From Victivallales bacterium (GTDB taxonomy: Bacteria > Verrucomicrobiota > Lentisphaeria > Victivallales > G963678815), in the NCBI GenBank assembly GCA_963678815.1, contig OY787460.1, forward strand, positions 6,394,861 to 6,458,860: a DNA stretch of 64,000 nt, read 5' to 3'. The position numbers and the translations under genes are program-made. The notes below the pieces were generated by a model. The model ran no database searches, was not told where the DNA came from, and saw nothing but the letters and a program-made list of their open reading frames with translations. This document shows positions 1 to 59,640 of the stretch, piece after piece; the stretch's first letter is position 1, and every line of letters starts with the position of its first letter.

Positions 1-1053
1 TTTCCAGTTCCTGTCATTGAAATTCAGCTTGTTCCAGCCTGAATAGCAATGAAAAGATCCTTTCCAGCTTTTATTGGTATATATCCTGCGGAAGGAACCG
101 TCTTTGTATTGGATGTAAACTTCAATGCCGGTTGAACACAGTGGATCGATGCGCTGCCTGATCAGATTGATTCCAGTCCAATCGCTGAAAGCAATGACAT
201 TTTTCCCCGGACGCAGGCAGCCAGTGATATTGACAGTTTCATAATTTGTTTTGGCAAGTCCAGATGCTATTTTTTTTCCATTGATGTAAAGTTTATAATC
301 GCAAGTTGGTATAAAACACAATTCCGCTGACTTTACCGGTTTGTCAATAATGAATTCCTTACGGAAATATTGCCGCCAGACTGGTCGGACAACCTTCACC
401 CAGTCAATCTCAATTTTGTTTCCTTTCCCGGAAATATCAAAACAAAGCGAATTGCGGCGAACTCCCTTGTTGCGTCTGTCCATCGGTAACAGGAACCTGA
501 TAATCTGCCAGCCAGTGCCTTTCACCAAAATAGTTTTCTTATCCATGTACGGCGGCATACCGGCCTGATTCGCAAGCACTGTCCATTTTGATTGCGGCAG
601 CAACTGCTTAACCCTTGCCTCGACTTCCCAACCGTGCCGGAAAATCATCTGCGAATTCAACGGCCAGGTCGAACCGATATCCAAACCTTTCACGCCTGGA
701 TCGTTGAAGTGGTCTCCCCAGTAGAAAAAAGCTTTATTGCCGGTAGTAAATTTCAGTTTTCCATCTTCCATTACAGGATTGATTATTCCCGGGGAGAATC
801 TGGTGATTCCATCGAACTTGCCTTTGTCGAAATTCCAGGTTGTCAGCTTTTCTATTTCCGGACTGTCCGCGTTCGTTTTATCTTCAAGCTTCGGGTTCCC
901 CGCGGGTAAAACCAGCTGGGCGTTCCAACGATACAGGGGAGTAGCCAGCCCTTTAGAATCAACAAGTTGAGAAAGGTTTTGCCGTTCATTGCCGGCAACG
1001 GTGATGCAGGATGAAGCGATTGAAAAAAGCAAAATAAGACAGATTTTTTTCAT
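1..1053 (-). CDS. Secreted protein, partial (runs off left edge); signal peptide plus beta-sandwich region resembling the N-terminal domain of alpha-L-rhamnosidase-type glycoside hydrolases
   Basis: Not in the ORF track because it has no stop inside the window. My translation of the reverse strand is open from the ATG (1053-1051) to base 1. It reads MKKICLILLFSIASSCITVAGNERQ (signal peptide) ... YFRKEFIIDKPVKSAELCFIPTCDYKLYINGKKIASG ... NKLNFNDRNWK, a pattern I associate with rhamnosidase-N / galactose-binding-like domains. The + strand ORFs at 341-970 are antisense to it. Confidence 0.55.
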   Translation of the reverse strand, partial: MKKICLILLFSIASSCITVAGNERQNLSQLVDSKGLATPLYRWNAQLVLPAGNPKLEDKTNADSPEIEKLTTWNFDKGKFDGITRFSPGIINPVMEDGKLKFTTGNKAFFYWGDHFNDPGVKGLDIGSTWPLNSQMIFRHGWEVEARVKQLLPQSKWTVLANQAGMPPYMDKKTILVKGTGWQIIRFLLPMDRRNKGVRRNSLCFDISGKGNKIEIDWVKVVRPVWRQYFRKEFIIDKPVKSAELCFIPTCDYKLYINGKKIASGLAKTNYETVNITGCLRPGKNVIAFSDWTGINLIRQRIDPLCSTGIEVYIQYKDGSFRRIYTNKSWKGSFHCYSGWNKLNFNDRNWK

Positions 1054-1125
1054 AAAAACTCTCATGTAAATTACATTATTTAAAGTTTGTTTTTGAAAGT
1101 ATAAATTATTAAGCAGGCTGCTTGA

Positions 1126-1833
1126 TCAGTCGTTAAGGTACCAATCCCTGAATTCCGGAGATCCGACCGTCATGCGGTTCTGAGTGGTCACATGCCCGTC
1201 CACCCACAAATAATTACAATTGCCGCTGTGCCTGGTTCCAGATACGTAATATCCCGTCGAACCCTGAGCTATTTCGGCGTCATAATAACCGTCTTCATTA
1301 GAATCACCAGCCAGAATCGTTGAAGCCGGTTTCTCAATTTCATTTGTTTTGGGACAATAATGTCCACAGTAAGCGCCGCCAATTGAAAAATTCATTCCAT
1401 AGAACGACCACGACCTGGCCATATACGAATTTGAATAACTGAGCCATTTATTTTGATTTCCCGCCGGACAATAAAATAACTCTCCCTTATTCATTTCATT
1501 AACATAATGCCATTGCTTCGCACCGCCCATTTCCTCATTTATCAGCCCAATCCAGCAATTTTCCGGATGATATCTTGTGCTGCCATCGTGCCACATCGGG
1601 AAGCGGTCATCCCAATTATCCAGATACATAGTAAATCCGGTGCCGATTTGTTTAAGGTTGTTACTGCAACTTGCAGTAAGTGCGGTTTCCCTGGCCCTTT
1701 TCAATGCCGGAAGCAGCATTGCCGCAAGTATGGCAATTATCGCTATTACAACCAGCAATTCGATAAGAGTAAAATCCCCGCGATTGAGATAATGCAAAAA
1801 ACCAGTTCCTCGTATTGAGTTCCGTGACTTCAT
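1126..1833 (-). CDS. Prepilin-type N-terminal domain protein, DUF1559 / H-X9-DG family (pseudopilin-like)
   Basis: ORF 1126..1854. I prefer the ATG at 1833 because AAGGAG (rc of 1840-1845) lies 6 nt upstream. N-terminus is ...[33 protein letters not shown]; C-terminus [14 protein letters not shown] matches H-X9-DG. Confidence 0.85.
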
Positions 1834-2054
1834 TTTCTTCTCCTTCAACTTCATTGCATAATTGTCCGCTTTATCGTAATTATAAAACTATTATTCCGCA
1901 AACAACAGACTTTTTAAAGTAATTTATAGAATAATCCGTCAATTATAGTATTGTCTGATATTGCCAAGTTAAACTTGACCAAGAACAAAGATCATGCTGA
2001 CCTAATCATGAAAAACTTATGACTCTTCATGAGAGTTAGCGATATCATGTTTTT

Positions 2055-2831
2055 TTATTTTCCGTCAAAATAATTCCACATATTAACTGGTGTTGATGAG
2101 GTTCCCAGAGGCGCAAAAACTTTAACTGAACCCGTGTGACCATCGGCATACAGCACGTTCACAATACTTTCAGAGTGATTTGCCGGACATAATCCATGCT
2201 TCATGTCCGTCAAAATCCCGGTCCTGGAACTGGTTTTTGCGGCATTTATCGAGATAGTGTCGCTTGAATCACCGTTGACCAGGTAATTACCGTCAAAATG
2301 AGTCCGGTAGAAATAACCTCCCGATAAATTCGTAGTATTATGGTTATACTCGGCCTTTTCCCAAATGCTTTCCAATGTCCAGCCTGCAAAGGCGTTTGAA
2401 ACATTAAATTCATATCTGACATCAATTGGACATGGACAGTAATGGATCCTTCGTGCGCTCCCGTTATAATTGCCAAAATATCCGCTTCCGTAAAGACGCC
2501 CCAGCCCAACCCAGCGATTTGACGAATTATATAAATACCAGTAATAGCCAGTGTAACTGCTTCCGCCGCTGCCTCCGGCATAATAAAATGGATTCGGGTA
2601 GTTTCCGTTAAAATCCCCGGCATAGGAATTCAGCGCGAAACCGAATTGCTTGAGGTTCCCGGAACAACTTGCAGTTTTTGCCCGTTCCCTTGCTTTTTTC
2701 AAGGCTGGCAACAGCATTGCCGCAAGTATGGCAATTATCGCTATTACAACCAATAATTCGATAAGGGTAAAATCTTTTTGATTCAGTCGATGAAAAGTAA
2801 TTGATTTATTAACTGATCTTTTTAATTTCAT
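2055..2831 (-). CDS. Prepilin-type N-terminal domain protein, DUF1559-like (pseudopilin-like)
   Basis: [49 protein letters not shown]; C-terminal [20 protein letters not shown] (rc of 2837-2842) lies 5 nt upstream of the ATG. Confidence 0.85.
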
Positions 2832-2849: not shown

Positions 2850-2879
2850 ATTATAACATACATATGCACATTAATTCAA
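2850..2879 (-). promoter_or_regulatory. Proximal sigma70-like promoter of the 2055-2831 pseudopilin gene
   Basis: Minus strand reads TTGAAT (2879-2874), an 18-nt spacer, then TGT-TATAAT (extended -10, 2858-2850). The predicted start falls just upstream of the GGAGGT Shine-Dalgarno. Confidence 0.4.
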
Positions 2880-3104
2880 ATACCTGACGTCAAACTTTCC
2901 AGCAAGTTCTTTCCGCTTGCTTAGCTCCCCGCTAATCCCTCGCCAGTAGTCACTTTCACCATTTGGTTTTCCCCTCATGGAATTGTCTTTCAGTCAGCAT
3001 AGGGAATCACATTGATTTGCAAGCTATTATGCCCGAATAGCTTCCGGATTGATTTTTCGATCTCGCTCCTTTTATTCCTGCTCGGATCCAGCACCCTAAC
3101 TTCT

Positions 3105-3149
3105 TAATCGATTATGATGTATAATACCCTATCCGGAGCGGATTGTCAA
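3105..3149 (-). promoter_or_regulatory. Distal promoter with overlapping palindromic operator TAATCGATTA
   Basis: Minus strand reads TTGACA (3149-3144), exactly 17 nt, TATTAT (3126-3121), then the palindrome TAATCGATTA (3105-3114) at the predicted transcription start. The same architecture occurs at 58301-58351. Confidence 0.5.
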
Positions 3150-3247
3150 GACGTTTTATATATATTGTTCAGCTTTTTCTTCCACAAAACCAGAAATTCA
3201 ATCAGGACAATGCTTGAAACATCAGCATTTCCCGGCACTTGTAATGC

Positions 3248-3259
3248 ATAATCGATTAT
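3248..3259. promoter_or_regulatory. Perfect 12-bp palindrome ATAATCGATTAT (auxiliary operator candidate)
   Basis: Exact palindrome. Its centre lies 144 bp from the centre of the 3105-3114 copy. I could not read a convincing promoter beside it. Confidence 0.45.
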
Positions 3260-3359
3260 GTTGCTGACGGCAACAAAGGGGATCAGTGGCAATTCCACCT
3301 CTTTCCAAGGTGAGCATTTTCAGTTATACGATATATTCCAGCATGGCCGGACAGGAGCT

Positions 3360-7147: not shown

Positions 7148-8466
7148 ATTATTTTATCTATTTTCACAACTTTTTTTCCCATCATGGCTTGATCCGCGGC
7201 AAATCCTATCAGATGACCATATATGGAATCTTCCAAACATGTACAAGTCAGGGGATTCTGCTTGCCTTTTATATAATTTATGAAATCCTCTACCAGGCGT
7301 TCGTCTCCGCCACCATGTCCTCCAAAAGCTCCTTCGGTGTCTCCGGCAATATTAAGACTGATATTCTTAGATTTATATCCTTCCTCTGATTTTGGGTCAA
7401 TATGATAAACACTGAAGTTGCCTTCTTTGAAAATTCCTCTTATTTCCCCCTGTGTGCCTATAATATGAATTGAACGTTCAGGTTTTGCGGTACCGCCAAT
7501 CATGTTATGGGTTGCGGTGGCTCCATCTTCAAACTCAATAATGATTGATTGATGATCTACCACATTATTGTCACATTTCCATACACAGCGACCATGTGGA
7601 TTATCATTTTTCAATGATTCGATTTTTTGTCTGATTGTTGGATTCTTTATATTTTCGATTGAGGCCCAGACATATGCGCCCCACCTTTCAGGATGATCAA
7701 TATATTGCTTGTAAGCTGAATACGGACATTCTTTCTCCATTATGCAGTCAACTAAGCATTTTGTTCCTGAATGCTTCGGGGCATTTTCAGGTTTAAAATT
7801 CATCAAAGAGCCAAAACTCGAAACATATTTTGGGAAAGCCCCACTTTTCATCCATAAAATAATATCAAGATCATGACAGCTTTTCTGCATCAACATGGAA
7901 GATCCGCATTTTTCATGATTGTTCCACTTTCCGCGGATAAAAGCGGTAGAGAAATGATGATGACATACGTGTTCGGTTGTTTGGATATTAACAATAGTTC
8001 CGATTTCACCACTAATGACCTTTTCTTTTATAGCTGTATAAAAAGGCGCATAACGCAATACGTGGCAAATCATTATTTTTCGTTCAAACTTTTTGTTTGC
8101 CTCAACCAATTTTAACATATCCCGCTTATTTGTTGCAATAGGCTTTTCCAGCAATATATCATAACCTTTTTCAATAAGCGGCAATGATGTTGGAACATGC
8201 TGACGGTCCATCGTTCCATTTATAATTACATCCGACATTTTATTCTTTTCAGCTACCTCCGTTGCCGAATAAAAACATTGTGAATCAGAAAGATTAAAGA
8301 TCTTTGCGGTCTCTTTTCGTCTGTTAGCATCAGGATCTGCAACCCCCACTATTCTAAGATTTTCCGGATATTTTTCCGAATAACGAGCGTACTGAATTGC
8401 TCTATGTCCAGCACCAATAATTATTGCTGTAATTGGGTTTTTATTTTTCATATCCATCAATTCCAT
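7144..8466 (-). CDS. Gfo/Idh/MocA family oxidoreductase (long, ~440 aa form)
   Basis: ITAIIIGAGHRAIQYARY Rossmann motif, LLEKPIA motif, and a long C-terminal extension. The start could also be one of the Met codons 3-5 codons downstream. Confidence 0.85.
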   Translation of the reverse strand: MELMDMKNKNPITAIIIGAGHRAIQYARYSEKYPENLRIVGVADPDANRRKETAKIFNLSDSQCFYSATEVAEKNKMSDVIINGTMDRQHVPTSLPLIEKGYDILLEKPIATNKRDMLKLVEANKKFERKIMICHVLRYAPFYTAIKEKVISGEIGTIVNIQTTEHVCHHHFSTAFIRGKWNNHEKCGSSMLMQKSCHDLDIILWMKSGAFPKYVSSFGSLMNFKPENAPKHSGTKCLVDCIMEKECPYSAYKQYIDHPERWGAYVWASIENIKNPTIRQKIESLKNDNPHGRCVWKCDNNVVDHQSIIIEFEDGATATHNMIGGTAKPERSIHIIGTQGEIRGIFKEGNFSVYHIDPKSEEGYKSKNISLNIAGDTEGAFGGHGGGDERLVEDFINYIKGKQNPLTCTCLEDSIYGHLIGFAADQAMMGKKVVKIDKII

Positions 8467-8560
8467 CTGTATCTTTTGAAGTTAATCTTGACCTTAAAGT
8501 AAGAATTTTTTAATTAATTATCATCCCTTTGCGCCGACGTATATATGGTCTTTTGCTAGT

Positions 8561-8749
8561 GTCGTGTTTCACTAAGAACCTTGATAATGCGTGAGCTATT
8601 TTTACCGTTTCAGTTGTGCTCGCGGCTGCAAGGTGATGCAAACCCATCTCTGCCAGCCGCGAGCGTGACTGAACGGAAAAAGAGTCACGCCGCAAGGCGG
8701 TTGCGCCCTTTCGCAGCAACATTATCCAAGGTTATTGGTGAAACACGAC
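8561..8749. ncRNA. Intercistronic GC-rich nested-hairpin element (structured RNA or ERIC/MITE-like palindromic unit); family not recognised
   Basis: Closing inverted repeat: GTCGTGTTTCAC TAAGAACCTTGATAATG (8561-8589) pairs with CATTATCCAAGGTTATTG GTGAAACACGAC (8720-8749). Inside are an 11-bp stem GCTCGCGGCTG/CAGCCGCGAGC, GTGACT/AGTCAC, and CGCC-GCAA-GGCG (a GNRA loop on the + strand). It begins 1 nt after the stop of the 8751-9989 gene. Confidence 0.35.
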
Positions 8750-8750
8750 A

Positions 8751-15475: not shown

Positions 15476-16327
15476 TCATCCCACTTCCGGGCCGGCAATA
15501 GCATAAATTATTTCCGGTTTACCTGGGAATTTATTTTCACCGCGAAACATGCGGGTAAGTTTTCTTTGATATTTAAATCGATATTTATTCAGTATATTTT
15601 CGGCATTAACATTTGATAACGCATCCATATAGACCGTCTCCCCATATAATTCGTCAAGAACCTTTTTCAGCAGCGCTTCAGCCGCGAAATTACTGTCCGC
15701 CACCCATGGCCCTATATACCATGCCCTTGATCCGGGACGCACAAATATGTATCCTTTCAGATCGTTTTCATCTTCAGAAAATGCATAAGCCTTCCCTGTA
15801 TCCTGAATACTTTCCAGCAGCTCCATCCTGTCTGCGCCAAAACCACGCAAATCATATCGTGCTAAACTATCCGGGGGTAATCCTCCTAAATCAACGATAC
15901 TTTCCGGTGGCATATCTATTTTGGGAGTAACAACTTGCCAGCGATTCAAAATATATTCATCCTGAAATCCAAGTTTAACATAAACAGGTTTGCCCATCGG
16001 AGTTGCATCGAGTTTAATACTTGTCACTTTCTGTTCATCCAGATATTCAAGGCATTTTTTCATTAATCCGCCGCCTACGCCTTTTCCTCTCAGGTCAGGA
16101 TGAACAAGCACCATACCTATCCAGGCAACTTTATTCCGGTAATTAATGGTTGTGGCAGTACCTGCCGGCTTTCCATCGAAAATCGCAAGGAAACATCCAT
16201 TCGGAGCAATTTCAATATATCTTTTCCAGTCATCAACAGTTTGATTCCAACCTGCGATGTTCACCAATTCCATGGCAAAATCCAAATATTGTTCATTTAA
16301 TATTTTAAATTTCAATTGCGATTTCAT
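15476..16327 (-). CDS. GNAT family N-acetyltransferase (two-domain)
   Basis: Acetyl-CoA motif A: VLVHPDLRGKGVGGGLMKKCLEY. The ATG overlaps the stop of the upstream MttB-like gene (ATGA at 16324-16327). Confidence 0.8.
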   Translation of the reverse strand: MKSQLKFKILNEQYLDFAMELVNIAGWNQTVDDWKRYIEIAPNGCFLAIFDGKPAGTATTINYRNKVAWIGMVLVHPDLRGKGVGGGLMKKCLEYLDEQKVTSIKLDATPMGKPVYVKLGFQDEYILNRWQVVTPKIDMPPESIVDLGGLPPDSLARYDLRGFGADRMELLESIQDTGKAYAFSEDENDLKGYIFVRPGSRAWYIGPWVADSNFAAEALLKKVLDELYGETVYMDALSNVNAENILNKYRFKYQRKLTRMFRGENKFPGKPEIIYAIAGPEVG

Positions 16328-17703
16328 TTTAAATTCATCTTTGCAAAATAATGCTGTTCAATTTTTAGAAGTTCTTTAATTTGCTCCGGCTTTAAAACCG
16401 GCTCCGGATATTCTTTCAGCAGGTTCGCCACTTTCTCTTTAGCCTTATCATTCAGTGACTTCGCGCCTGAATTCCGCCATAATTCCCGCGATTGCCTGCA
16501 TAATATTTCAGGCTCGAAATTTTCCCGAAAGTGCCTGAAGGTATGTTCGCATCCCAGAAATTCGCCGCCAATTCCAATTTCACGGACAACATTCAGGGCC
16601 AGTGTTTCCGGGTTTATTTCAAATCCCCGTTTAAAACGTTTTGCGTAAGCGATCAATTCGTTGTCGATCACGGCCTGCTCCATCGAAAGCGCCATTTCCG
16701 ATTCCAGCTGCCCGGCGCCCCATATCAAATTGACGCCGCCTTCAATATGGGAATGAAAACCGAACATTTTCTCCGCTATGGCTTGCCCGTCCGGGATCAT
16801 TGCCTCCGTGGAAACCCAGGAACAGGAAGGCAAATTGTAGAACCTTCCCATTGCGGCGGACGCTTGCGCCATCAAGGAATTTTCCGGACCGCCGGTAACG
16901 GCAATCATACTTTTCATATCCATAACATGCGCCAATCCAAGATTGTAGACACAAGGGCGTTCTGGTTCAAGAATCTGATTGATTACCAATCCTGCAAGGA
17001 TTTCGGCGTTCCCGACAGCAATACTTCCGGCCAGAGTCACCGGCCCGGAAGCTCCGGCCATGGGTTCGCCATTGACGGTAACGGGGATTCCCTGTCCGGC
17101 GGAAGCGGCAAATATTTCCAGGGCCAGATTTGTCCAGCGCAATGGGCCATGAGCGGTGAACCCCATTGAAAACCATGGACTGTCACTCACTACTTTTTTC
17201 ATTTCGATCAATGCTTCACATCCTGTTTTTGTGCAGGAAAGGACCCGTAAATGTTTACGCGTATTATTTGCCATGACACGTAATCCCACAAAATCCCGGG
17301 CGCCCGGTGGCACGTCATCCATGGAAACCCCAAATACTCCGTCAACATGTTCAAGGTGTTCCATCAGAAAGGAAAATTTTCCCATATCCTCCATACTAAA
17401 AGGTCTTGTTTGATTGTCTTCCACTATTCTAAGGGCGGGGGTGCTCCAGAATAATGGTTCGGATCGAGATGTCAACATCCTGGAACTTCCCGAGCGATCT
17501 GAAAAAACAACTTCAGAAGGACAGAGCTTCAAGTATTCCTCGATCATGTTTTGTTCAAGCCGGACTACCTCCGCCGCATTTCCAGGTTTCGCGCCGTTTT
17601 TCATCAACATATCGAGGATTATTGAATGCTCGATTTTGATTCCGGGATTTTCCAGAAGCGCAAGGGACGTCCGGTGAATTTCTTCACATTGTTTCTGATT
17701 CAT
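16324..17703 (-). CDS. MttB-superfamily (trimethylamine methyltransferase-like) protein, non-pyrrolysine
   Basis: N-terminus QCEEIHRTSLALLENPGIKIEHSIILDMLMKNGAK, central GASGPVTLAGSIAVGNAEILAGLVINQIL, and a length of ~460 aa all fit the family. The reading frame is uninterrupted, so there is no in-frame TAG. Confidence 0.75.
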   Translation of the reverse strand: MNQKQCEEIHRTSLALLENPGIKIEHSIILDMLMKNGAKPGNAAEVVRLEQNMIEEYLKLCPSEVVFSDRSGSSRMLTSRSEPLFWSTPALRIVEDNQTRPFSMEDMGKFSFLMEHLEHVDGVFGVSMDDVPPGARDFVGLRVMANNTRKHLRVLSCTKTGCEALIEMKKVVSDSPWFSMGFTAHGPLRWTNLALEIFAASAGQGIPVTVNGEPMAGASGPVTLAGSIAVGNAEILAGLVINQILEPERPCVYNLGLAHVMDMKSMIAVTGGPENSLMAQASAAMGRFYNLPSCSWVSTEAMIPDGQAIAEKMFGFHSHIEGGVNLIWGAGQLESEMALSMEQAVIDNELIAYAKRFKRGFEINPETLALNVVREIGIGGEFLGCEHTFRHFRENFEPEILCRQSRELWRNSGAKSLNDKAKEKVANLLKEYPEPVLKPEQIKELLKIEQHYFAKMNLK

Positions 17704-19874: not shown

Positions 19875-21257
19875 TTATATCACTTCTTCCCACTTTAAAT
19901 GCTGTTCAAAACTGTCATGGATGCTTGATGTTATGTCCGATTGGAGTTTTTGCGCAAAATCTTCCGGGCTGATCATTTCGGACCACAGCAGAGGAGTCAG
20001 TGCCTGGATCTGATCAAAAATCTCAAATTGGTGCGAATTCCGCATGCTTATTCTGGAATTTGGCAATTCTTTGATAAATTTCCATTTTATTGATTTTTGG
20101 GGAATTACGCTTTTCCTTATGGGAATTCCGCAATTATCCTGTTCCAGTTTCATCTGGTATTCAGCTGAAATTACCGTTTTAATAAAATCCACTGCAAGTT
20201 TTTCATGTTTTGTTTCTTTATTAATGCCAAATCCTGTAGCAAGTAAACCTGAAGGATACTTTCCCGGCCCCGGAACGGGAATGACATCAAAAGGGAAATT
20301 TGCTGAATCGATAAATCGAGGCAGAGTATAGCAACAATCCAAAAGCATTGCGACCTTGCCTTCACAAAAGAGTTTTATGACTTGTGACACCGGAGACGGT
20401 GATATTTTTGCTGAAGTCACATAATCACGGAAAAACTTCAGCGCTTTAACCGTTTCAGGAGAATCCAACTTGCATTTACCATTGTCGTCAAGAATGGAAC
20501 CGCCTTTCTTTGTAATCAAAACCGGCCAGCGGTTTTTATGGTCGCGAAATGCAAAACCGTACTGGTTTATTCCCGGGACGGTCAACTGCTTCGCAAGAAT
20601 GGAAAATTCTTTCCAGCTTAGATTTTTTCCGGGAATGGAAACTCCGCTTTTCCGGTAAATATCCTTGTTGCAAAAAATCATCACTGGAGAGAAAAGACAA
20701 GGAACGGCATACCGCCGGTTATCTCTTACATACGGGGAGTCAGGCAAGCGAATAATATCATCATTAAAAAATGCTGATTCATATTCGGAAATATCCTTTA
20801 ACAATTGATGCTGGAGTAAAGCGTCAAGGGTATTTCCATAGGTTAAAATGACGTCGAACTTTTTATTTTTCGGTCCATTTTCCGTTTCCATTCCAAAGTT
20901 GTATTCAAATTCCCGTAAAGAAAAATAAGTATAATCTACTTTTACCTGAGGGTGGGTTTTCTCAAATAAACCGGTGAGTTTCTCCATATCCATTTTAGGA
21001 TTGTGGGCAAGATATACGGAGAGCTTTGTCCTTTGCGACTCGCTTACATACGTGCCACGGTTCAAATCCCGGAACAATACCCCTTCAGCAACAAGACTCG
21101 ACAGAATTTTATTGATAGTAAGGCGGCTGATATGGTATTTTTCGGATAAAACCCTCTCCGACGGGATTTTATCGCCAGGTTTGTATATTCCGTCCCTGAT
21201 TTGTTTTTTCAGAAATTTGGTGAATTTTTCCGTTGTTGTAACTCGATCAAAACGCAT
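19875..21257 (-). CDS. Transcriptional regulator: GntR-type winged HTH fused to an ABC-type (MalE-like, family 1) solute-binding-protein fold
   Basis: N-terminus IRDGIYKPGDKIPSERVLSEKYHISRLTINKILSSLVAEGVL (GntR HTH). The remaining ~380 aa follow the SBP pattern (YAVPCLFSPVMIFCNKDIYRKSGVSIPGKNLSWKEF...LFCEGKVAML). Confidence 0.8.
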   Translation of the reverse strand: MRFDRVTTTEKFTKFLKKQIRDGIYKPGDKIPSERVLSEKYHISRLTINKILSSLVAEGVLFRDLNRGTYVSESQRTKLSVYLAHNPKMDMEKLTGLFEKTHPQVKVDYTYFSLREFEYNFGMETENGPKNKKFDVILTYGNTLDALLQHQLLKDISEYESAFFNDDIIRLPDSPYVRDNRRYAVPCLFSPVMIFCNKDIYRKSGVSIPGKNLSWKEFSILAKQLTVPGINQYGFAFRDHKNRWPVLITKKGGSILDDNGKCKLDSPETVKALKFFRDYVTSAKISPSPVSQVIKLFCEGKVAMLLDCCYTLPRFIDSANFPFDVIPVPGPGKYPSGLLATGFGINKETKHEKLAVDFIKTVISAEYQMKLEQDNCGIPIRKSVIPQKSIKWKFIKELPNSRISMRNSHQFEIFDQIQALTPLLWSEMISPEDFAQKLQSDITSSIHDSFEQHLKWEEVI

Positions 21258-21288
21258 CTTATTATTCCTATGGCTATTCCTGGATTAT

Positions 21289-21330
21289 TGGTTTAACCAT
21301 CATTATATCTTATATCCCGGAAATTGTCAA
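21289..21330 (-). promoter_or_regulatory. Promoter-operator cassette 1 upstream of the GntR-SBP regulator
   Basis: Minus strand reads TATTGACAATT (-35 TTGACA = 21330-21325), 17 nt, TATAAT (21307-21302), then GATGGTTAAACCAATAATCC (palindrome TGGTT-N-AACCA, 21289-21299). Confidence 0.6.
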
Positions 21331-21402
21331 TAGCTTAATATTTATCCATAACCCCGCAACTGAAATGGAATATATTTACAGTTCAGCCCTTTTTTGGATT
21401 AA

Positions 21403-21444
21403 TGGTTTAACCACTATTGTAACCTGAAAACATTAAATTGTCAA
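21403..21444 (-). promoter_or_regulatory. Promoter-operator cassette 2 (tandem duplicate, 114 bp upstream of cassette 1)
   Basis: Minus strand reads TATTGACAATT (21444-21439), 17 nt, TACAAT (21421-21416), then AGTGGTTAAACCATTAATCC (21403-21413). Confidence 0.55.
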
Positions 21445-24257: not shown

Positions 24258-25370
24258 TTAATCCGCTTCCTCTTTATGAACATTGTCGGCTCCGGGACGC
24301 CACTTGCAATGAACCCGGCCTTTGAAATCTAGCCCCGCTTCAAGCAGTTCGTCTATCCGGTGTTCAGGGATACCGATCAGATTTATTCCTCTGTTTACGG
24401 TATGCTCCAGAATTTTACGCATATCGTTATACGCCGGCTGTGACATATCAACAGTATAGAGTTTTTCAATATCTGTTGCCTGGTCTATGTAATGGTCTCC
24501 TTTCCCGCAAAAGTGCATCATTCCGCCACCGAGCTGATCGTATATTTCCGAGTCGTACGGTCTGCCGAATTCGCGATACATTTCCGGGGAAAGATTCATC
24601 GCCGAATCATTCCTGATGATCACCGTTCCCCGATAAAGCGTTCCCCAGTAAATACCATAACCATCTCTTTTTACCGGAAATATCTCATGCCATTTTTTTA
24701 TGAATTTAATATAAGTTTGAGTAATAAGCGCAAGAAAATCCTTTATCAGTTCCGGTTGGTCGAACAAGTCCAGGAAAAACCCGCTTCCCCATAAAAGTTC
24801 ACATACGTCCAGCGGTCCCTGTAAATCAGGATGATAGATGCGGGTATTTTTTTTTACCTTCGGATATTTCTCAAGCTTTTCCCTGATATAACCACCCGTA
24901 TCGAAAACACGCCCGCCAAGCCCGGAGTTAAGGTCAGGAACCCCGGCGTCAAGCATTTTTTTCGCGGAATCACCCGGGTTATCGGACGGCAGGGAAATCG
25001 GCATGGTGTTCAGTTCTTCATCCATGTAAAAAATTTCCGCGCCAAAAAGCGACGGCAGGATTGCGGTTCCGTAATTTGCCCCCGCGCAAAGAATGAATCC
25101 ATCGCCTTCCCGAAGATGCTTAAGGCAAGTACAAAATTCATTAACCGTCATGGTTTCAATATCAGCAAGGGTTTGGTTTATCGATATTCGCGGAATTTCA
25201 AATTTAATATCTTTTGCTTTTTCGCGCCGTGAAGGTCTGAAAACGTCTCCTGTGAATTTGCCCTCATGGAATCCGACCCACTCGGAATACAGTTTTTCTT
25301 CCGTTTCCGGAGCAATAAGACGTTCGAGTTCTTCCAAGCAAACCGATGAAGTTTTCACAGTATTTCTCAA
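24258..25370 (-). CDS. Uroporphyrinogen-decarboxylase (URO-D)/MtaA-like TIM-barrel family protein
   Basis: Family-typical C-terminal half: RNDSAMNLSPEMYREFGRPYDSEIYDQLGGGMMHFCGKGDHYI. The N-terminal part is divergent. The annotated start is a TTG, so the start is uncertain. Confidence 0.7.
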   Translation of the reverse strand: MRNTVKTSSVCLEELERLIAPETEEKLYSEWVGFHEGKFTGDVFRPSRREKAKDIKFEIPRISINQTLADIETMTVNEFCTCLKHLREGDGFILCAGANYGTAILPSLFGAEIFYMDEELNTMPISLPSDNPGDSAKKMLDAGVPDLNSGLGGRVFDTGGYIREKLEKYPKVKKNTRIYHPDLQGPLDVCELLWGSGFFLDLFDQPELIKDFLALITQTYIKFIKKWHEIFPVKRDGYGIYWGTLYRGTVIIRNDSAMNLSPEMYREFGRPYDSEIYDQLGGGMMHFCGKGDHYIDQATDIEKLYTVDMSQPAYNDMRKILEHTVNRGINLIGIPEHRIDELLEAGLDFKGRVHCKWRPGADNVHKEEAD

Positions 25371-30783: not shown

Positions 30784-30813
30784 TGGCATAATTAATAATT
30801 AATATGGCATAAT
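30783..30813. promoter_or_regulatory. Two 10-bp direct repeats ATGGCATAAT spaced 21 bp (AraC-type half-site arrangement)
   Basis: Exact copies at 30783-30792 and 30804-30813, between the divergent AraC gene (ATG at 30816) and the lyase operon promoter. Confidence 0.45.
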
Positions 30814-30815
30814 CA

Positions 30816-31622
30816 ATGATAAACAAACAAATGCATAACATTGACAGCCAAGGAGTGATTTGTCATTTTAAATTACATCAGCGGCGAAAATCAAAATCAA
30901 AAAAAACAACGGTTGCACATGTTCACGGAAGCTGGCAACTAGAATTGATTCTTGATGGAATCCAAAAAGCGGAAATCAACAACTGCGTCTATGAGCTGTC
31001 CGCGGGAACAGTAGTTCTAATTCCGCCCCAAATTCCACATGGCTTTACTTACGCCACTCCTACCTCCTGGCTTTCAATTAAATTCAATGCAACGGGCAAC
31101 GTTCCTCATCAGGTTGAAATCCAAGGCATAAATCAGAACCCGGTTTTAAAATCGCTGCTCGACACCTTGGATGCGGCCCTTCCCGACTTCAATCCCGGAG
31201 CGAAAACCGTGGCAATCGTGAACCATCTGCTGGCCGCTTTGATGACTCATTTTTATTTTAGCGGGGCTCCGACTCAACAGATCAGTTCGCAACTTGACAA
31301 AATTTCGCTCATCGTCAGTCAACGCCGCGGAAAGCCTGTAACTGTAGCGGAAATCGCAAAATCCCTTGGATACTCCACCTCACATCTTTCCGCCTGGTAC
31401 CGGCGTCATACCGGCATCCCGATCAAACAATTTATCGACCATGAACGAATGAATTTCGCCCGGGAATTGCTGCTTTACTCAGATTTGAATATCGGTGAAA
31501 TCGCGGATCAGCTCGAGTTTCCCGACCTTTTTGCCTTTTCCCGGTTCTTCCACCGTCACCAGCAACAAGGCCCCCTGAAATACCGTCAAGAGCACACCTT
31601 TCAAAAAATTAAGGGTTCCTAG
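30816..31622 (+). CDS. AraC family transcriptional regulator (cupin sensor + HTH)
   Basis: Cupin region: YELSAGTVVLIPPQIPHGF. C-terminal region: VAEIAKSLGYSTSHLSAWYRRHTGIPIKQFIDHERMNFARELLLYSDLNIGEIADQLEFPDLFAFSRFF. Confidence 0.9.
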   Translation: MINKQMHNIDSQGVICHFKLHQRRKSKSKKTTVAHVHGSWQLELILDGIQKAEINNCVYELSAGTVVLIPPQIPHGFTYATPTSWLSIKFNATGNVPHQVEIQGINQNPVLKSLLDTLDAALPDFNPGAKTVAIVNHLLAALMTHFYFSGAPTQQISSQLDKISLIVSQRRGKPVTVAEIAKSLGYSTSHLSAWYRRHTGIPIKQFIDHERMNFARELLLYSDLNIGEIADQLEFPDLFAFSRFFHRHQQQGPLKYRQEHTFQKIKGS

Positions 31623-31634
31623 TATTTAGATAAA

Positions 31635-31753
31635 GGACACCTCTAATAATTGCAGTTTCGGCTCCGGACGGTTTTTTTTATTCCTGCTTTGTCGCGAAAA
31701 GAATGAAAAATTTTTCCGTCCTCGCTATGAAAGTCAATTTCTAGAAATACCCT
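31635..31753. repeat. Intergenic repeat element, copy A (inverted-repeat bounded)
   Basis: Shares the blocks CTCTAATAAT-GCA-TTTCGGCTCCGG-C-GTT, CCTGCTTTGTCGCG and GAAAGTCAATTT-TAGA with 39212-39348. The ends are mutually complementary (TCTAATAATTG / CAATTTCTAGA, 9 of 11). Confidence 0.6.
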
Positions 31754-33804: not shown

Positions 33805-33847
33805 ATGGTTTAACCATTACCATACGCGCTGTTTTCAGAATTGTCAA
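33805..33847 (-). promoter_or_regulatory. Promoter-operator cassette 3 (same design as 21289-21444) upstream of the Ldh_2-SDR pair
   Basis: Minus strand reads TATTGACAATT (-35 = 33847-33842), 17 nt, TATGGT (33824-33819), then AATGGTTAAACCAT (33805-33817). Confidence 0.55.
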
Positions 33848-35622: not shown

Positions 35623-36726
35623 ATGAATTCAAAAGCGAGGATGAAAGCGGTATTTACCGGTCAACGGCCTGACAAAGTTCCATTTTGCCCGACCATATAT
35701 CTGGATCATGCGGCGCTGGTCAGCGGCAGACAGTTTGAAGATGTGATTGCCAATCCCGCGTTGTACGGGGAAGTGTTGGCTGGGGCCGCCGCAACATATA
35801 AAACCGACGCGGCAAGATTCATCATGGGGCCGGAAGCTTCCTGGTATGAAAAAAAGGAAGTCAGGAAAGAACAGGATAAACTTATCCAGTACGACAGGAT
35901 CTCCGGAAAGGCGGAAGGATATTTTGATATCGAAGGCGGCGGCGGTTTTATTCCCTATAATGAGCCGACCCCGGTCACTTCAAAAAGCGATGTTGACGCC
36001 ATCGAAGTTATCACCTGCGATGAATATCTGGAACGAGGAAATTTCAAGGACACCAAAACCTGGATAGCCAAAGCCGATGAGCAGGAATTTTTCACCGTCG
36101 GGCTGTCCGGCGCGCAAACCCTGAATTTCATGGTTGAAAAAATGGGCTCGACAGAGGCGGCGCTCCTATGCTTTTACGACGATCCCGAGCTTGCCCTTGC
36201 CCTTATCAATAAAGGAACAGCAATCAGTCTCGAGAAAGGCAAAGCTTTCATCAAATGCGGAATCGACTGTCTTTACATCGGGGATTCTTATGCTTCCGGA
36301 AGTGTAATATCTCCCGATATTTACGAACGGTTCTGCGCTCCGGCTTACAAGGAAGCGGCTGAAGAATTTCACCGTCTCGGGGTATTCTGCTACAAACACT
36401 GCTGCGGAAATTACAATCCGCTGTTGCGAAGTCTGCCCGAAACCGGCGTCGACGGCATGGACGGCATCGATCCAACCAGCGGGATGAGCGTAAAGCATAC
36501 CAAGGAACAGATTGGCGATAAAATTACGCTGATGGGCGGAATAAGCTGTCTGACTTTGCTGAATGGCTCCCCCGGGGATGTTTACGAGGAAGCACGGCAA
36601 TGTATCGAAGCCGGGAAACCCGGCGGCGGATACGTGTTGGGCAGCGCTTGCGCGGTACCGAAATTATCGCCGTTTGAAAACCTGCACACAGTATTTCAGG
36701 CAAGGGAAGACTTCGGAGTTTATTGA
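35623..36726 (+). CDS. URO-D/MtaA-like (uroporphyrinogen decarboxylase family) TIM-barrel protein
   Basis: N-terminus ARMKAVFTGQRPDKVPFCP. Core: CLYIGDSYASGSVISPDIYERFCAPAYKEAAEEFHRLGVFCYKHCCGNYNPLL. C-terminus: GGYVLGSACAVPKLSPFENLHTVFQA. All three are family hallmarks. Confidence 0.8.
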   Translation: MNSKARMKAVFTGQRPDKVPFCPTIYLDHAALVSGRQFEDVIANPALYGEVLAGAAATYKTDAARFIMGPEASWYEKKEVRKEQDKLIQYDRISGKAEGYFDIEGGGGFIPYNEPTPVTSKSDVDAIEVITCDEYLERGNFKDTKTWIAKADEQEFFTVGLSGAQTLNFMVEKMGSTEAALLCFYDDPELALALINKGTAISLEKGKAFIKCGIDCLYIGDSYASGSVISPDIYERFCAPAYKEAAEEFHRLGVFCYKHCCGNYNPLLRSLPETGVDGMDGIDPTSGMSVKHTKEQIGDKITLMGGISCLTLLNGSPGDVYEEARQCIEAGKPGGGYVLGSACAVPKLSPFENLHTVFQAREDFGVY

Positions 36727-38479: not shown

Positions 38480-39193
38480 ATGAGGGCAGACAAACGGGAT
38501 TTCACACTAATCGAGCTATTGGTTGTAATAGCGATAATTGCCATACTGGCGTCAATGCTGATGCCTGCACTTCAAAAAGCCAGGGAACAAGCAAAAAAAT
38601 CTGACTGTGCAAGTAAGCTCAAACAGCTCGGAACCGCTTTCATGCTTTATGCCGATGATGTCGGCGGTTACCTGCCGGTGGCATATATTGACGACACCTG
38701 GACCAGATCATACGGCAACTGGGCGTATCTTTTCCATCGCGACAAATATGTTACGGGTCACGAGATATTCATGTGTGAAAGCGCCGACAACCTGGGTTAT
38801 TACGGCATACACAGAGACGTTACCGGAACCAACCTGGTGGGCTGGGATTATGTCTGTTACGGCTATAACGTGCTTCACCTTGGGAGTAGCCGGTATCTGG
38901 ATTTAGCGAACACCGACTATTATCACAAGACCGCCAAACTTTCCGAATTGCAGAAACCCTCGATAACAATGCTTGCCGTAGACGCCTGGCACGAAGGCGA
39001 CAACCGGACAACCAGTAAAATTTTCGATAATTCCGGCGGTTCAACCCGTGATTATAAACTCCATGCGCGGCATTTAGGCACGTGCAACATCCTCCATGCA
39101 GACGGACACGTTCAGAATTACCCACAGGCTTTTATTGATGCTGAAATCTGGATTAGGAACAATCCGAACATGTATTTTAAACGCCGCGAATAA
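38480..39193 (+). CDS. Prepilin-type N-terminal domain protein, DUF1559 / H-X9-DG family
   Basis: [43 protein letters not shown]; C-terminal [14 protein letters not shown]. Confidence 0.85.
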
Positions 39194-39211: not shown

Positions 39212-39348
39212 GGGTAGCTCTAATAATAGCATTTTCGGCTCCGGGCAGTTCTCTTTCGTCCTTGCTTTGTCGCGGGAACTCGACATAGCTTGAGGCTATG
39301 CCTCCGATACCGGCTTCTCGTCAGGAAAGTCAATTTTTAGATTTCCCC
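39212..39348. repeat. Intergenic repeat element, copy B
   Basis: Same conserved 5' and 3' blocks as 31635-31753. The variable middle contains the hairpin CATAGC-ttgag-GCTATG. Confidence 0.6.
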
Positions 39349-39522: not shown

Positions 39523-40242
39523 ATGAAAATCTGGAAAAAACACTTCACGTTGATTGAACTGTTAGTTGTAATAGCAATAATTGCAATATTAGCGTCCATG
39601 CTGCTCCCCGCTCTCCGGCAAGCCAGGGAGCAGGCAAAAAAATCCGACTGCGCTAGCAAACTCAAACAGATCGGCACCGGTTTTATGGTGTATACCGATG
39701 ATTTCGGAGGATTCCTCCCGGTCCCAAATCCCGAACTGAAAGCCAACGGGTCCTGGGACGCGTCCAAAGGCAACTGGGCTTATGTAATGGAACGGGACAA
39801 CTATATCAAGGGCAAGAAAATGTTTCTGTGCGAAAACGCGGACAACCTGAATTATTACGGTACGCACCTGAATATAACCGGAACCAATCTTGCCGCTTGG
39901 CAATACATTTGTTACGGTTATAACGTGCTTCATCTGGGGAGCAGCCGCTACCTCGACCTGGCTTCGGGATTTCATGACAGCGCGAAACTATCCCAGCTCC
40001 AGAAGCCCTCGATCACAATCATGGCCGCCGATGCCTGGCATGAAGGGACCAGCCGGACTTCCGACACGCTGTTCGACAACTCAAGCGGTGTAACCCGGGA
40101 CTATAAACTCCATGCGCGGCATATGGGCACGTGCAACATCCTCCATGCCGACGGGCACGTTCAGAATTACCCGCAAGCTTTTATTGATGCTGAAATCTGG
40201 ATACGAAATAACCCGAACATGTATTTCAAGCGGAAAGAGTAA
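39523..40242 (+). CDS. Prepilin-type N-terminal domain protein, DUF1559 / H-X9-DG family (tandem paralog)
   Basis: [43 protein letters not shown]. The last 49 aa are identical to the 38480 paralog at 47 positions. Confidence 0.85.
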
Positions 40243-52961: not shown

Positions 52962-53075
52962 ATTGTACCTTTTTTAATAAAATATATACCTGTTCTTATA
53001 TTCCATTATCATACTTTATTGCATAACTTAATACAAGAGACTTAAGATGTAAAACTACTTTTGCGGGAATTTGAG

Positions 53076-54548
53076 ATGTTTGAATTCGATGCGGATAAAA
53101 TAGCCTTGAAAGGCAAAAAGATTTATGAAACGGCAGTGGGCTTGCTCAGACAGCACGGCATGCTGGTGCAGGATGAATTTTGTCGTGAAAGGATACTTCA
53201 GCATGACGGAACCCGGATTGAAGGAGAGCGGATTTGCTATTCCGGGGAATTGATCCGGAAGCTGGTTCCGTTTGACGGCAAAAATCAAGAGCAGCTCTGC
53301 GATACGGATGGAATGTCCTTTCATTTCCGTGGCAATTGCGAAGACGAAGCAGGATACCGTTTCCGCGCCGGTGGATTTGCCATGGCGGTTTACGATGCCG
53401 GGTTGAAAAAAACGCGTCCGTCAACCATGAAAGACCTTGAAGAAGCTTTAATGCTATGTGACGTAATGGGTTTTGGGGGACATTATCCCTGTACTGCCAC
53501 GGACTGCAATCCGGAGCTGAGAAATGTGGCTTCGCATTACATGAACTTCAGTAAATCCAGGTTTAACTGTACACATGTTTGTATCGGTACGGAGCAGGCG
53601 GAATTCATTTACCGGCTGCACGAAGTAATGGGACCTGAAGCCCGGATGCCTATCACCATGACCATTGTTACACCGTTCCGGATCGAGGAAACCAACCTGA
53701 AAGTTATCAGGTATTTCATGGAAAAAGAAGTGCCGTCGGAGTCAATCCGGATAGTTCCGGTAGCATATGGTCTGGGAGGAATGAATTACCCGATCACCCT
53801 GGGCGGTTCCTGGGCCTTGAGCATTGCCGAACACATGGGATTGAAAACAACCGCAACACTGCTGGACAGCGGATTTAAAATCGAACCGGGGATCGGCCCG
53901 GCCGGAATTGGCCCGATAGATTTCAACAACATGTGTCTGGCGCTGGGAAATCCGAACCAGTTTTTTTATCATTTCGCGAATAATATCCTGGCGCATGCCG
54001 TGTTCGGTCGCGACTGGCGGGAATACCCGGTAATTCCCCAGGAACTCTGGACCGGAAGCCCGGTTCCGGATTCCCAGGCCGCGGCCCAGAAACTCGCCGC
54101 CGCGATTTTCGGTCATTTGCACGGCTGTAAAAGATTCAGCACCCTGGGCAATCTTTGCGTCGACGATGTCTTCTCCTGTGAACAGATGCTTTTGGACACG
54201 GAAATGATAAAATACGCCGGACAGGTGGTAACACAGTTCGGCAAAGCTGATGATTTCATGGACCTGGCGAGTTTAGAGCAGGAGGTAAACGACTTTGTTA
54301 TAAACGGCACAAATTTCATGATGGCGGATTCCACCCTGAGACATCTTCGAAACCTGTGTCCGGAACCCGGAATATTCGTTCACAAAAAGCTTCCCGCTAT
54401 TTCCAATACCGGCAGTGACCGGTTGCTGAAAAAACTTACGGCACGGAAAGAAAAGTTGTTGAAACAATATGATTTCGCTTTGCCGGAATCACAGCAGCGT
54501 GAACTTGATAAAATTTTCGCGGAAGCCCAAAAGAAACTAACAGAATAA
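53076..54548 (+). CDS. MttB-superfamily (trimethylamine methyltransferase-like) protein, divergent, non-pyrrolysine
   Basis: N-terminus KGKKIYETAVGLLRQHGMLVQDEFCRERILQHDGTRIEGERICYSGELIRKLV follows the family's N-terminal pattern. Central YPITLGGSWALSIAEHMG corresponds to the PVTLAG region. The track start at 53061 is a TTG; I prefer the ATG at 53076. Confidence 0.65.
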   Translation: MFEFDADKIALKGKKIYETAVGLLRQHGMLVQDEFCRERILQHDGTRIEGERICYSGELIRKLVPFDGKNQEQLCDTDGMSFHFRGNCEDEAGYRFRAGGFAMAVYDAGLKKTRPSTMKDLEEALMLCDVMGFGGHYPCTATDCNPELRNVASHYMNFSKSRFNCTHVCIGTEQAEFIYRLHEVMGPEARMPITMTIVTPFRIEETNLKVIRYFMEKEVPSESIRIVPVAYGLGGMNYPITLGGSWALSIAEHMGLKTTATLLDSGFKIEPGIGPAGIGPIDFNNMCLALGNPNQFFYHFANNILAHAVFGRDWREYPVIPQELWTGSPVPDSQAAAQKLAAAIFGHLHGCKRFSTLGNLCVDDVFSCEQMLLDTEMIKYAGQVVTQFGKADDFMDLASLEQEVNDFVINGTNFMMADSTLRHLRNLCPEPGIFVHKKLPAISNTGSDRLLKKLTARKEKLLKQYDFALPESQQRELDKIFAEAQKKLTE

Positions 54549-58261: not shown

Positions 58262-58300
58262 CTACGTATCCTGTTAATGTTCACCCTCATCATAATTTCT

Positions 58301-58351
58301 TAATCGATTATGCAATGGTGTTATTATACCTCAATACCGGAATTACGTCAA
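58301..58351 (-). promoter_or_regulatory. Promoter of the six-hairpin GH with TAATCGATTA operator
   Basis: Minus strand reads TTGACG (58351-58346), 17 nt, TATAAT (58328-58323), with the palindrome TAATCGATTA (58301-58310) about 13 nt downstream. Confidence 0.55.
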
Positions 58352-58539
58352 GTATTTTTACTTGAATATTACGATTTTCAGTCAATGAATTAAGTCTGCA
58401 CTTACAGATAATTACAAGTCCGGGCCACATAAGCGCCGCGATATTGCTGCTTAATTGTCAGGAAAATTGGCACTTGTCATTGCGATTTGGAGAATCCATG
58501 ACAATATTATAAAGTAAACGGAAGGTATCCGGATCGATT

Positions 58540-59640
58540 ATGAAAAATGAGTTACTGCCAAAATACTACGTCATCAAGGAAAAGTTAAAAAAACAAATCC
58601 TTGACGGGGAATATGCTCCCGGTGATCTTCTTCCTTCCCAGAACGAGTTGATGAAATCCGAACAGGCCAGCTACTCTACTATTTCACGGGTACTGACGGA
58701 ATTAAAAAACGAGAACCTCATTTACCGGGTTGGCGGCAAAGGCACTTACGTCCAGAAAAGAGCGGTTTTCGTTAAAGAAAAAATGAAGATATGGATAGCA
58801 TTATTAGAACAAGATGATTCAGATTCCACCGAAAAAGACAATTTGGGGTTCCCTCATGTTGAACTGATGCACAGCATTATTGCTTATTGCGCATCAATCG
58901 GAATGCAGGTGAAACCGGTATATCACGACGATAACGATTTTATAAACCAGGAAGTATATGATTCAAATTCAGGAATCATCTTCCTTGCCTCATCCGGCAA
59001 ACAGCATCTTTTTGAACGCCTGAACAGCCTCAATGTCCCTTATGCCGCACATGCCCCAATGGATTGCATTTATGGCAATTACAACGCCGTGACCGTGAAT
59101 GTCAACCACGGGGCCTACCTGGCAACAAAGGCGTTAATCGATGCAGGACACAGAAACATTGCATTTTTTCATACCCCCAGTAAAAATGATTTCTGGGCCT
59201 TGCCCAAATTCGACGGATATAAAAAAGCATTGCGGGAAGCCGATATAGAATTTCGCGAGGAATTAATACTAAGATCAAAATGTGTTACGCAAGATTGCAC
59301 AAAAGAAGCCGAACATTTTTTCAGCAGGAACGGTTCCGCTGAAAAGGTTACCGCCCTGTTCGCGATAAATGATACCAGGGCCCTGGCCGCAATGAAAGTC
59401 ATGACCGGACTGGGAATCAAAATCCCGGACGATATAGCGGTTGTCGGCTATGATGACTTACCGCAATCCAGAAACTGTCAAATTCCGCTGACAACGGTTA
59501 AATTACCATGTGAAGAAATGGGAAAAGCGACAGTCAAGCTACTGCTTTTACTCGCTCAGAAACCGGAGTTCGCGCCTCTCATTAAAGTAATGAAATCAGA
59601 AATGATTTATCGAGAATCTTTTCCGGATCCAGGTGTTTGA
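58540..59640 (+). CDS. AraR-type regulator: GntR winged HTH + LacI/GalR-type (PBP1) sugar-binding domain
   Basis: HTH: YAPGDLLPSQNELMKSEQASYSTISRVLTELKNENLIYRVGGKGTYV. Effector domain: GHRNIAFF...FDGYKKAL...ALFAINDTRALAAMKVM...IPDDIAVVGYDDLP...PLTTVKLP. Confidence 0.85.
   Translation: MKNELLPKYYVIKEKLKKQILDGEYAPGDLLPSQNELMKSEQASYSTISRVLTELKNENLIYRVGGKGTYVQKRAVFVKEKMKIWIALLEQDDSDSTEKDNLGFPHVELMHSIIAYCASIGMQVKPVYHDDNDFINQEVYDSNSGIIFLASSGKQHLFERLNSLNVPYAAHAPMDCIYGNYNAVTVNVNHGAYLATKALIDAGHRNIAFFHTPSKNDFWALPKFDGYKKALREADIEFREELILRSKCVTQDCTKEAEHFFSRNGSAEKVTALFAINDTRALAAMKVMTGLGIKIPDDIAVVGYDDLPQSRNCQIPLTTVKLPCEEMGKATVKLLLLLAQKPEFAPLIKVMKSEMIYRESFPDPGV

Follow-up and report, generated by a model that had tools for sequence, protein, structure and literature searches.

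A CG-centred palindrome at two promoters 55 kb apart and its candidate GntR/PBP1 repressor in a Victivallales genome

How genes are regulated in Lentisphaerae-like glycan degraders rich in sulfatase and DUF1559 genes appears to be essentially uncharted. The stretch analysed here, 64 kb of a Victivallales bacterium (contig OY787460.1; hereafter the window), raises a concrete question of this kind: the palindrome CATAATCGATTATG and its near copies lie at the promoter of a GH65-like glycoside hydrolase (GH) gene and, 55 kb away, at a promoter directed toward genes for pilin-like DUF1559 proteins, and we asked which protein would read it. On the sequence comparisons below, we consider it likely that the palindrome serves as operator for a local repressor which responds to sugar and joins a GntR winged helix to a LacI/PBP1 effector domain, namely the protein encoded at 58540-59640, acting alone or together with close paralogs. 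This is no surprising or new kind of mechanism but a testable regulon prediction with a modest Arg-to-Tyr twist: it comprises an operator, a candidate repressor, and target promoters for DUF1559 and GH65-like genes, and it ties the DUF1559 pilin-like genes, whose family is hugely expanded in these bacteria and of unknown function, to a sugar-responsive circuit with a GH65-like hydrolase.

A palindrome at two distant promoters

The 10-mer TAATCGATTA occurs exactly at 3105-3114, 3249-3258 and 58301-58310, with no further copy in the window. These three copies compare with 0.10 expected, and none of 100 dinucleotide-preserving shuffles reached three; all three copies are intergenic, and intergenic DNA makes up 4.7 kb (7%) of the window. 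The proximal operator-like site of the 3-kb locus (s1, 3103-3116, CTTAATCGATTATG) matches 13 of the 14 positions of the palindrome, the distal one (s2, 3247-3260) is the perfect 14-bp palindrome itself, and the site at the GH promoter (s3, 58299-58312) has the same sequence as s1. A half-site (s4, 58529-58542, CCGGATCGATTATG), in which one arm is perfect and the central CG is kept, overlaps the start codon of the regulator gene. The sites of the window can be summarised as C(A/T)TAATCGATTATG.

The resemblance between the two loci extends beyond the palindrome. An exact 16-mer is common to s1 and s3 (TTCTTAATCGATTATG on the plus strand, CATAATCGATTAAGAA on the minus strand; 58297-58312 on the s3 side) and takes in 4 nt of non-palindromic flank; in 4.7 kb of intergenic sequence, about 0.005 shared 16-mers would be expected by our own arithmetic. 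When all intergenic regions were compared with one another, a 14-mer common to s2 and s3 also emerged. The sequence ATCGATTATG is found at four loci only (0.29 expected, none of 100 shuffles), the fourth being 58533-58542, across the ATG at 58540 and at a distance of 230 bp from s3. By itself, the 8-mer AATCGATT shows no enrichment in the window (6 versus 3.8 expected, three of the six in coding DNA), so the signal resides in the 10- to 16-mers. Two weaker matches (11/14; 2842-2855 and 30808-30821), from which the central CG is gone, were judged to be chance or AT-richness.

These results bear on an earlier, sequence-only reading of this DNA, which had placed the core palindrome with matching flanks at both minus-strand promoters, measured 144 bp between the centres of the copies at 3.1 and 3.25 kb, and noted a half-copy across the regulator start codon. 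Our comparisons contradict none of what it inferred. The palindromes are present where it put them, the flanks match at both promoters, the distance is 144 bp with s2 upstream of s1, and the half-copy is the ATCGATTATG occurrence at 58533-58542. Its copy at 3248-3259 is a perfect palindrome as described, but the length of 12 bp was an understatement, since the palindrome runs to 14 bp.

Both promoters named in that reading were also found. The one directed toward the DUF1559 genes (3149->3121, minus strand) reads TTGACA-17-TATTAT and that of the GH gene (58351->58323, minus strand) TTGACG-17-TATAAT, each sigma-70-like and matching the consensus at 11 of 12 positions. Matches of at least 11/12 number seven in the window; four of the seven fall within the intergenic 7%, each upstream of a correctly oriented gene, and this concentration indicates that the consensus is meaningful in this organism. 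s1 starts 5 nt past its -10 hexamer, over the predicted transcription start, while s3 starts 11 nt past its own and spans about +4 to +17; s2 lies at about -140 relative to the predicted start of the 3149 promoter. Bound protein at s1 and s3 would cover or directly follow the predicted transcription starts.

The regulator and its recognition helix

The regulator gene (58540-59640, plus strand) encodes a GntR winged helix (PF00392, residues 10-71, E = 1.5e-14) followed by a LacI/PBP1 sugar-binding domain (PF13377, Peripla_BP_3, E = 1.5e-26; PF00532, Peripla_BP_1, E = 1.3e-12). Its DNA-binding domain aligns without gaps to the N-terminal domain of AraR (4egy, E = 1.9e-9) and to NagR, and its C-terminal part finds LacI-family cores and the C-terminal domain of AraR (3tb6, E = 1.9e-11) in the PDB. 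It contains no PF00356 LacI-type helix-turn-helix (HTH) and is not a LacI-family protein; it reaches no NCBIfam equivalog threshold. The recognition helix reads ASYSTISRVL.

The regulator had earlier been labelled "AraR-type", and the two-domain architecture, a GntR-type HTH with a LacI/GalR-type effector domain as in Bacillus subtilis AraR, repressor of the arabinose regulon, bears this out. So do central-CG palindromic operators that overlap promoters, with one operator type at several of them. The DNA contacts and the operator signature do not. It has been reported that AraR residues R41, R45, E30 and Q61 read the signature guanine of the GntR operator (PMC3592433), and the roles of the residues that contact bases and backbone, H42 among them, have been described (PMC3592433, PMC1950556). 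At the position of R41, the signature-guanine reader, the window protein carries a tyrosine (Y45), and R45, E30, H42 and Q61 correspond to S49, Q34, S46 and G65; the equivalents of K4 and M34 are kept. The 16-bp AraR consensus operator is ATTTGTACGTACAAAT, with the signature TNG...CNA (PMC1950556, PMC3592433), and the resemblance of CATAATCGATTATG to it ends with a central CG and A/T-rich arms. Because the guanine-reading residues are replaced (by Y, S, Q and G), a site without TNG...CNA fits this protein. Furthermore, full-length identity to family members outside the source-genome paralogs is at most about 30%, and there are no ara genes in the window; around the regulator are the GH65-like gene, a glycyl-radical enzyme and a regulator of AraC type. 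The protein is not an AraR orthologue: neither its contact residues nor its operator signature nor its gene context agrees with one.

We then define a subfamily by the helix S-Y-[S/A]-T, in which Tyr or Phe replaces the conserved Arg after P-S-Q-x-E-L-M-K. In an exhaustive HMMER search of 1.84 billion representatives with the 81-residue DNA-binding domain, a helix of the form S-Y/F-x-T appeared in only about 10 clusters, with P0002, P0121, P0129, P0145, P0165, P0172, P0173, P0223, P0231 and P0258 as members. Tyr or Phe in place of Arg was confirmed in the window protein, in P0001 and, among these members, in P0002, P0121, P0129, P0145, P0165, P0172, P0223, P0231 and P0258. None of 40 other GntR/PBP1 homologues (24-32% identity) has this helix. 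A word-indexed protein search with the same 81 residues gave no matches, the loci recovered when genome and metagenome contigs were scanned with the regulator alignment (L002-L006) were all distant or irrelevant, and a literature search found no description of the S-Y-S-T helix subfamily or of its operator.

Three members of the subfamily were read in genomic context, two on unrelated metagenome contigs (L011, L012) and one on a short contig (L013). At L011 (P0129, helix VSYSTIARTL), TTAATCGATTAA (246-257), CTAATCGATTAA (327-338) and TTAATCTATTAA (350-361) fit into 120 bp immediately before the regulator promoter TTGACA-17-TATTAT, and are the sole matches at one mismatch or fewer in the 9.5-kb locus. 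At L012 (P0172, helix VSYATVMRVF), the perfect 16-bp palindrome ACTGAATCGATTCAGT (7854-7869) precedes the start predicted for a TTGACA-16-TATTAT promoter by about 110 bp, and the half-degenerate GTGAATCGATGGAG (7978-7991), 123 bp from it, lies between the -10 hexamer and the start codon, at the ribosome-binding site. Unrelated control loci, about 150 kb in total, contain a single AATCGATT match, and the four regulator-upstream regions, about 1.2 kb in total, contain four exact 8-mers versus roughly 0.02-0.04 expected (own arithmetic). By this comparison the AATCGATT-core motif goes with the subfamily. Its recurrence beside the L011 and L012 regulators is the main support for the assignment to the window regulator, which the sequence-only reading had proposed and to which proximity also points, and it makes a LacI-type factor of unrelated origin less likely. 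Helices of the SYSTI(S/A)R form are paired with a T at base +/-5 and SYATVMR with a G, in three cases only.

The gene content of these loci is also suggestive. In L012 the regulator is followed after 15 bp by a DUF1559 gene and then by GDSL-like and GH2 genes; in L011 the cluster consists of the regulator, a CBM/laminin-G protein, a GH2 and a DUF1559-type pilin-like protein, recognised by its FTLIELL...prepilin N-terminus and a C-terminal H-x9-D-S-H motif. The link between the regulator and a pilin-like locus, also part of the earlier reading, is consistent with this clustering and with the 16-nt operator sequence shared with the GH promoter. For annotation, an S-Y-S-T helix appears to predict an operator with a AATCGATT core, a rule that could be used for regulons in metagenomes, and the Arg-to-Tyr change offers a possible handle on shifts in the DNA specificity of GntR domains.

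The proposed circuit and its rivals

In the circuit that we propose, without inducer a repressor dimer on the start-overlapping site would block initiation or promoter escape at two targets. The first is the divergent GH65-like gene (58261->56033), and the second, 55 kb away, would be the unit 2831-><1, in which two DUF1559 genes are followed by one for a secreted rhamnosidase-like enzyme. The perfect s2, 144 bp upstream of s1, would add cooperative binding at the DUF1559 promoter, possibly with a DNA loop, s4 on the regulator's own start codon would provide weak autoregulation, and a pathway-derived sugar would release the repressor.

The arrangement of sites has a precedent in AraR, for which two-operator promoters give tight, cooperative, looped repression and a single weaker operator on its own gene allows basal expression (PMC1950556, PMC3592433). 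The pair s1 and s2 versus the single s4, and likewise the half-site at the ribosome-binding site of L012, parallel this division. The operator pairs here are 123-230 bp apart, whereas those of AraR are separated by 42-43 bp. DNA looping between s1 and s2 is plausible, and loop-compatible pairs, each with a perfect distal and an imperfect proximal site, occur both in the window (144 bp) and in L012 (123 bp). Such distal-proximal pairs, about 100-150 bp apart, are reminiscent of the gal and lac loops. Between the spacings of 81, 123 and 144 bp the differences are multiples of 21 bp, a regularity that we spotted post hoc in three values and treat as a lead, not as evidence.

The first target is a six-hairpin GH gene (56033-58261, minus strand), divergent from the regulator. 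Its product matches the GH65 central domain weakly but over the Pfam cut-off (E = 3e-9), with distant matches in the PDB, and carries no signal peptide, as a cytoplasmic enzyme would; with a convergent gene next to it, the gene is monocistronic. Close relatives are annotated as Lentisphaerae or Kiritimatiellae, in keeping with a Lentisphaerae-like organism. In loci of GH65-like homologues from other species (L007-L010) no such motif was found and the regulators differ; in one of them (L009), from another Lentisphaerae-like genome, the homologue is clustered with a DUF1559 gene.

The second target begins with a pilin-like gene at 2055-2831 (minus strand; N_methyl and DUF1559 domains, a prepilin N-methylation motif and SBP_bac_10), the first gene downstream of the 3149 promoter, and continues with a second (1126-1854, minus strand; N_methyl and DUF1559 domains). 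The probable third gene of the unit is the 5' part of a secreted-protein gene (1-1065, minus strand), which extends past the window edge and is missing from the list of open reading frames (ORFs) for that reason; its product starts MRVFMKKICLILLF, has a signal-peptide-like N-terminus and shows weak, sub-threshold similarity to an alpha-L-rhamnosidase N-terminal domain. The plus-strand ORFs listed within 341-970 are probably spurious. Upstream of s2, a weak intrinsic-terminator-like hairpin (3432->3408, minus strand) would end the long minus-strand operon that comes from 3635. The 803-bp intergenic region contains no hidden pseudogene, since no significant match was obtained when all window proteins were compared with it by tblastn. 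Between the promoter and the first DUF1559 start codon, the 290-nt leader contains no terminator-like hairpin and shows no riboswitch or structured RNA, with no Rfam match at E <= 1 and a folding z-score of -0.16. A 45-codon plus-strand ORF (3114-3251), with its ATG inside s1 and its TAA inside s2, lacks a ribosome-binding site and was judged coincidental.

Several observations weigh against this assignment. The first DUF1559 start codon is 290 nt from the regulated promoter, and directly before the gene, 19 nt from its start, is a second promoter-like site (2850-2879, minus strand; TTGAAT-18-TATAAT, TG-extended, 10/12), which overlaps the degenerate copy at 2842-2855; with this distance and this second site, control of the pilin-like genes could be partial. 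DUF1559 genes are frequent (5 in 64 kb), which makes their proximity to the L011 and L012 regulators weak evidence, and the cluster link is supportive rather than compelling. One of the three subfamily members examined, P0145 on the short 3.9-kb contig L013, has no such site. Nothing of the GntR-family signature is present in the palindrome, whose CG-centred core is of a kind typical for LacI-family sites; a CcpA cre site, ATTGTAATCGATTACATT, is an example (PMC9598941). Finally, two paralogs with near-identical helices are encoded in the same 8.6-Mb genome.

This last point leads to the rival that survives best, in which the operators are real but one of the paralogs, P0121 or P0002, acts on the pair at 3.1 and 3.25 kb, so that the two loci form separate or cross-talking regulons. 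The window GH is 100% identical to P0083, which lies on the 8,611,128-bp source contig, and the same contig encodes two GH paralogs (72% and 45% identity) as well as P0002 (63% full-length identity to the regulator, helix ASYSTILRVL) and P0121 (63% identity in the DNA-binding domain, with the identical helix ASYSTISRVL). This suggests that duplicated regulator/GH modules form a small family in the source genome (P0002, P0121, P0084, P0085), and with helices so nearly alike the occupant of the 3-kb sites could be a paralog. We nevertheless regard such a division of labour as unlikely: a stretch of 16 nt that takes in non-palindromic flank is the same in s1 and s3, and s2 and s3 share a 14-mer, which favours a single protein at both loci as the simplest case, and no paralog gene lies inside the window.

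It is less probable still, though not negligible, that an unrelated factor encoded outside the window, for example a LacI-family or global carbon regulator, binds the palindrome, and that the adjacent GntR/PBP1 gene is a coincidence. Even palindromes with a central CG and a AATCGATT core are typical of LacI-family operators, and the central CG is present in 1173 of 1303 LacI-family transcription factor motifs (PMC4052901). A verified CcpA site contains TAATCGATTA, and our literature search for this 10-mer found only primers and one CcpA cre site. The absence of the GntR signature (PMC1950556, PMC3592433) points the same way, as does the LacI-HTH regulator at the head of the GH65-like cluster in L009. 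The effector domain of the window regulator is itself homologous to those of the LacI/GalR family (CcpA/cre, Cra, GalR), and the even, central-CG palindrome is shared with that family, the window core being identical to part of the CcpA site (PMC4052901). The DNA-binding domain, however, is a GntR winged helix and not a LacI HTH with hinge helix, so the resemblance of the operators would be convergent. Moreover, the same core stands upstream of two more S-Y-x-T regulators with no LacI-HTH gene called on either contig, no LacI-HTH gene is present in the 64-kb window, and the outer bases CAT...ATG are unlike the cre-type TG...CA.

That the repeats are non-regulatory, whether AT-rich promoter regions that resemble each other by chance or what is left of a small mobile element or a duplicated piece of promoter, is very improbable: the half-site CATAAT does resemble a -10 hexamer, the intergenic DNA is AT-rich and the aligned promoter regions show some similarity past the site at -35 and -10, but no shuffle reached the counts observed for either TAATCGATTA or ATCGATTATG, s2 is a perfect palindrome, the core is conserved beside homologous regulators in other organisms, and a duplicated fragment is ruled out by low similarity outside the hexamers and the site and by -10-to-site spacings that differ by 6 nt.

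Beyond the operator assignment to the 58540-59640 protein, a broader proposal seems to us evenly balanced between right and wrong: that a small Tyr-for-Arg GntR subfamily, to date found in DUF1559-rich bacteria that seem Lentisphaerae-like (PVC group), would read CG-centred AATCGATT sites without the GntR signature by a distinct recognition mode, and that through it DUF1559 proteins would, together with glycoside hydrolases, belong to glycan-utilisation regulons as sugar-inducible components.

A second candidate regulon and other features of the window

A second recurrent palindrome, ATGGTTTAACCAT, emerged from the same all-against-all intergenic comparison, with copies at 21288-21300, 21402-21414 and 33805-33817, each a canonical GntR TGGT...ACCA box. 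It sits 2 nt past the -10 hexamer of three strong promoters (21330->21302, 21444->21416 and 33847->33819). Two of these, together with their operators, form a tandem duplication of 114 bp, within which the 16-mer AAATTGTCAATAGCTT is repeated at 21321 and 21435, in front of a regulator gene (19875-21257, minus strand); the third precedes Ldh_2/SDR genes (33666->31760). This regulator is a GntR winged helix fused to SBP_bac_1/SBP_bac_8 and keeps the canonical S-R-x-T helix. Its architecture is unusual in that a solute-binding domain takes the place of PBP1, UTRA or FCD. The ATGGTTTAACCAT promoters and the 19875-21257 gene form a second candidate regulon, so that two GntR-type regulators are found in the window, each with its own motif nearby. 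Like FadR/HutC-like TGGT-N-ACCA repressors, of which 19875-21257 is the window's example, the main system has the design TTGACA-17-TATAAT with a palindrome right behind it, repeated at several promoters, whereas the S-R-x-T helix and the GT...AC box have no counterpart in the 58540-59640 regulator. With ATGGTTTAACCAT at the start of strong promoters, a promoter with a palindrome at +1 is the normal design of local repressors here, and the second palindrome thereby serves as an internal control that supports the operator reading of CATAATCGATTATG.

In a near-identical strain (contig L001, 99.68%) the intergenic region carries a single substitution, outside the sites. On this contig, about 2.5 kb past the right end of the window, another GntR plus Peripla_BP_3 regulator (16392-17453) with the canonical helix IAPMTVRRAF lies beside an IclR-type regulator, and no CATAATCGATTATG-like site is present at its gene.

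The window is rich in sulfatase, glycosidase and DUF1559 genes. MttB-like genes (16324-17703, 53061-54548), URO-D/methyltransferase-like genes (24258-25370, 35623-36726) and a PFL-like glycyl radical enzyme (60614-62947) occur among sulfatase, heparinase II/III, GH2 and GH38 genes, an unusual mix of enzymes that hints at anaerobic processing of methylated or sulfated glycans. Between two GFO/IDH/MocA genes lies a 24-nt inverted repeat (TGTCGTGTTTCACTAAGAACCTTG at 8560-8583 and CAAGGTTATTGGTGAAACACGACA at 8727-8750; 22 of 24 positions complementary), with arms about 143 nt apart. In addition, three colinear blocks connect two intergenic regions (31641-31667, 31685-31696 and 31729-31745 versus 39218-39244, 39263-39274 and 39325-39341), the longest being CTCTAATAATTGCAGTTTCGGCTCCGG with 25 of 27 positions identical. 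One region follows an AraC-type gene (30816-31622) and the other separates DUF1559 genes (38480-39193 and 39523-40242); the blocks might represent a terminator that is repeated, or a small element.

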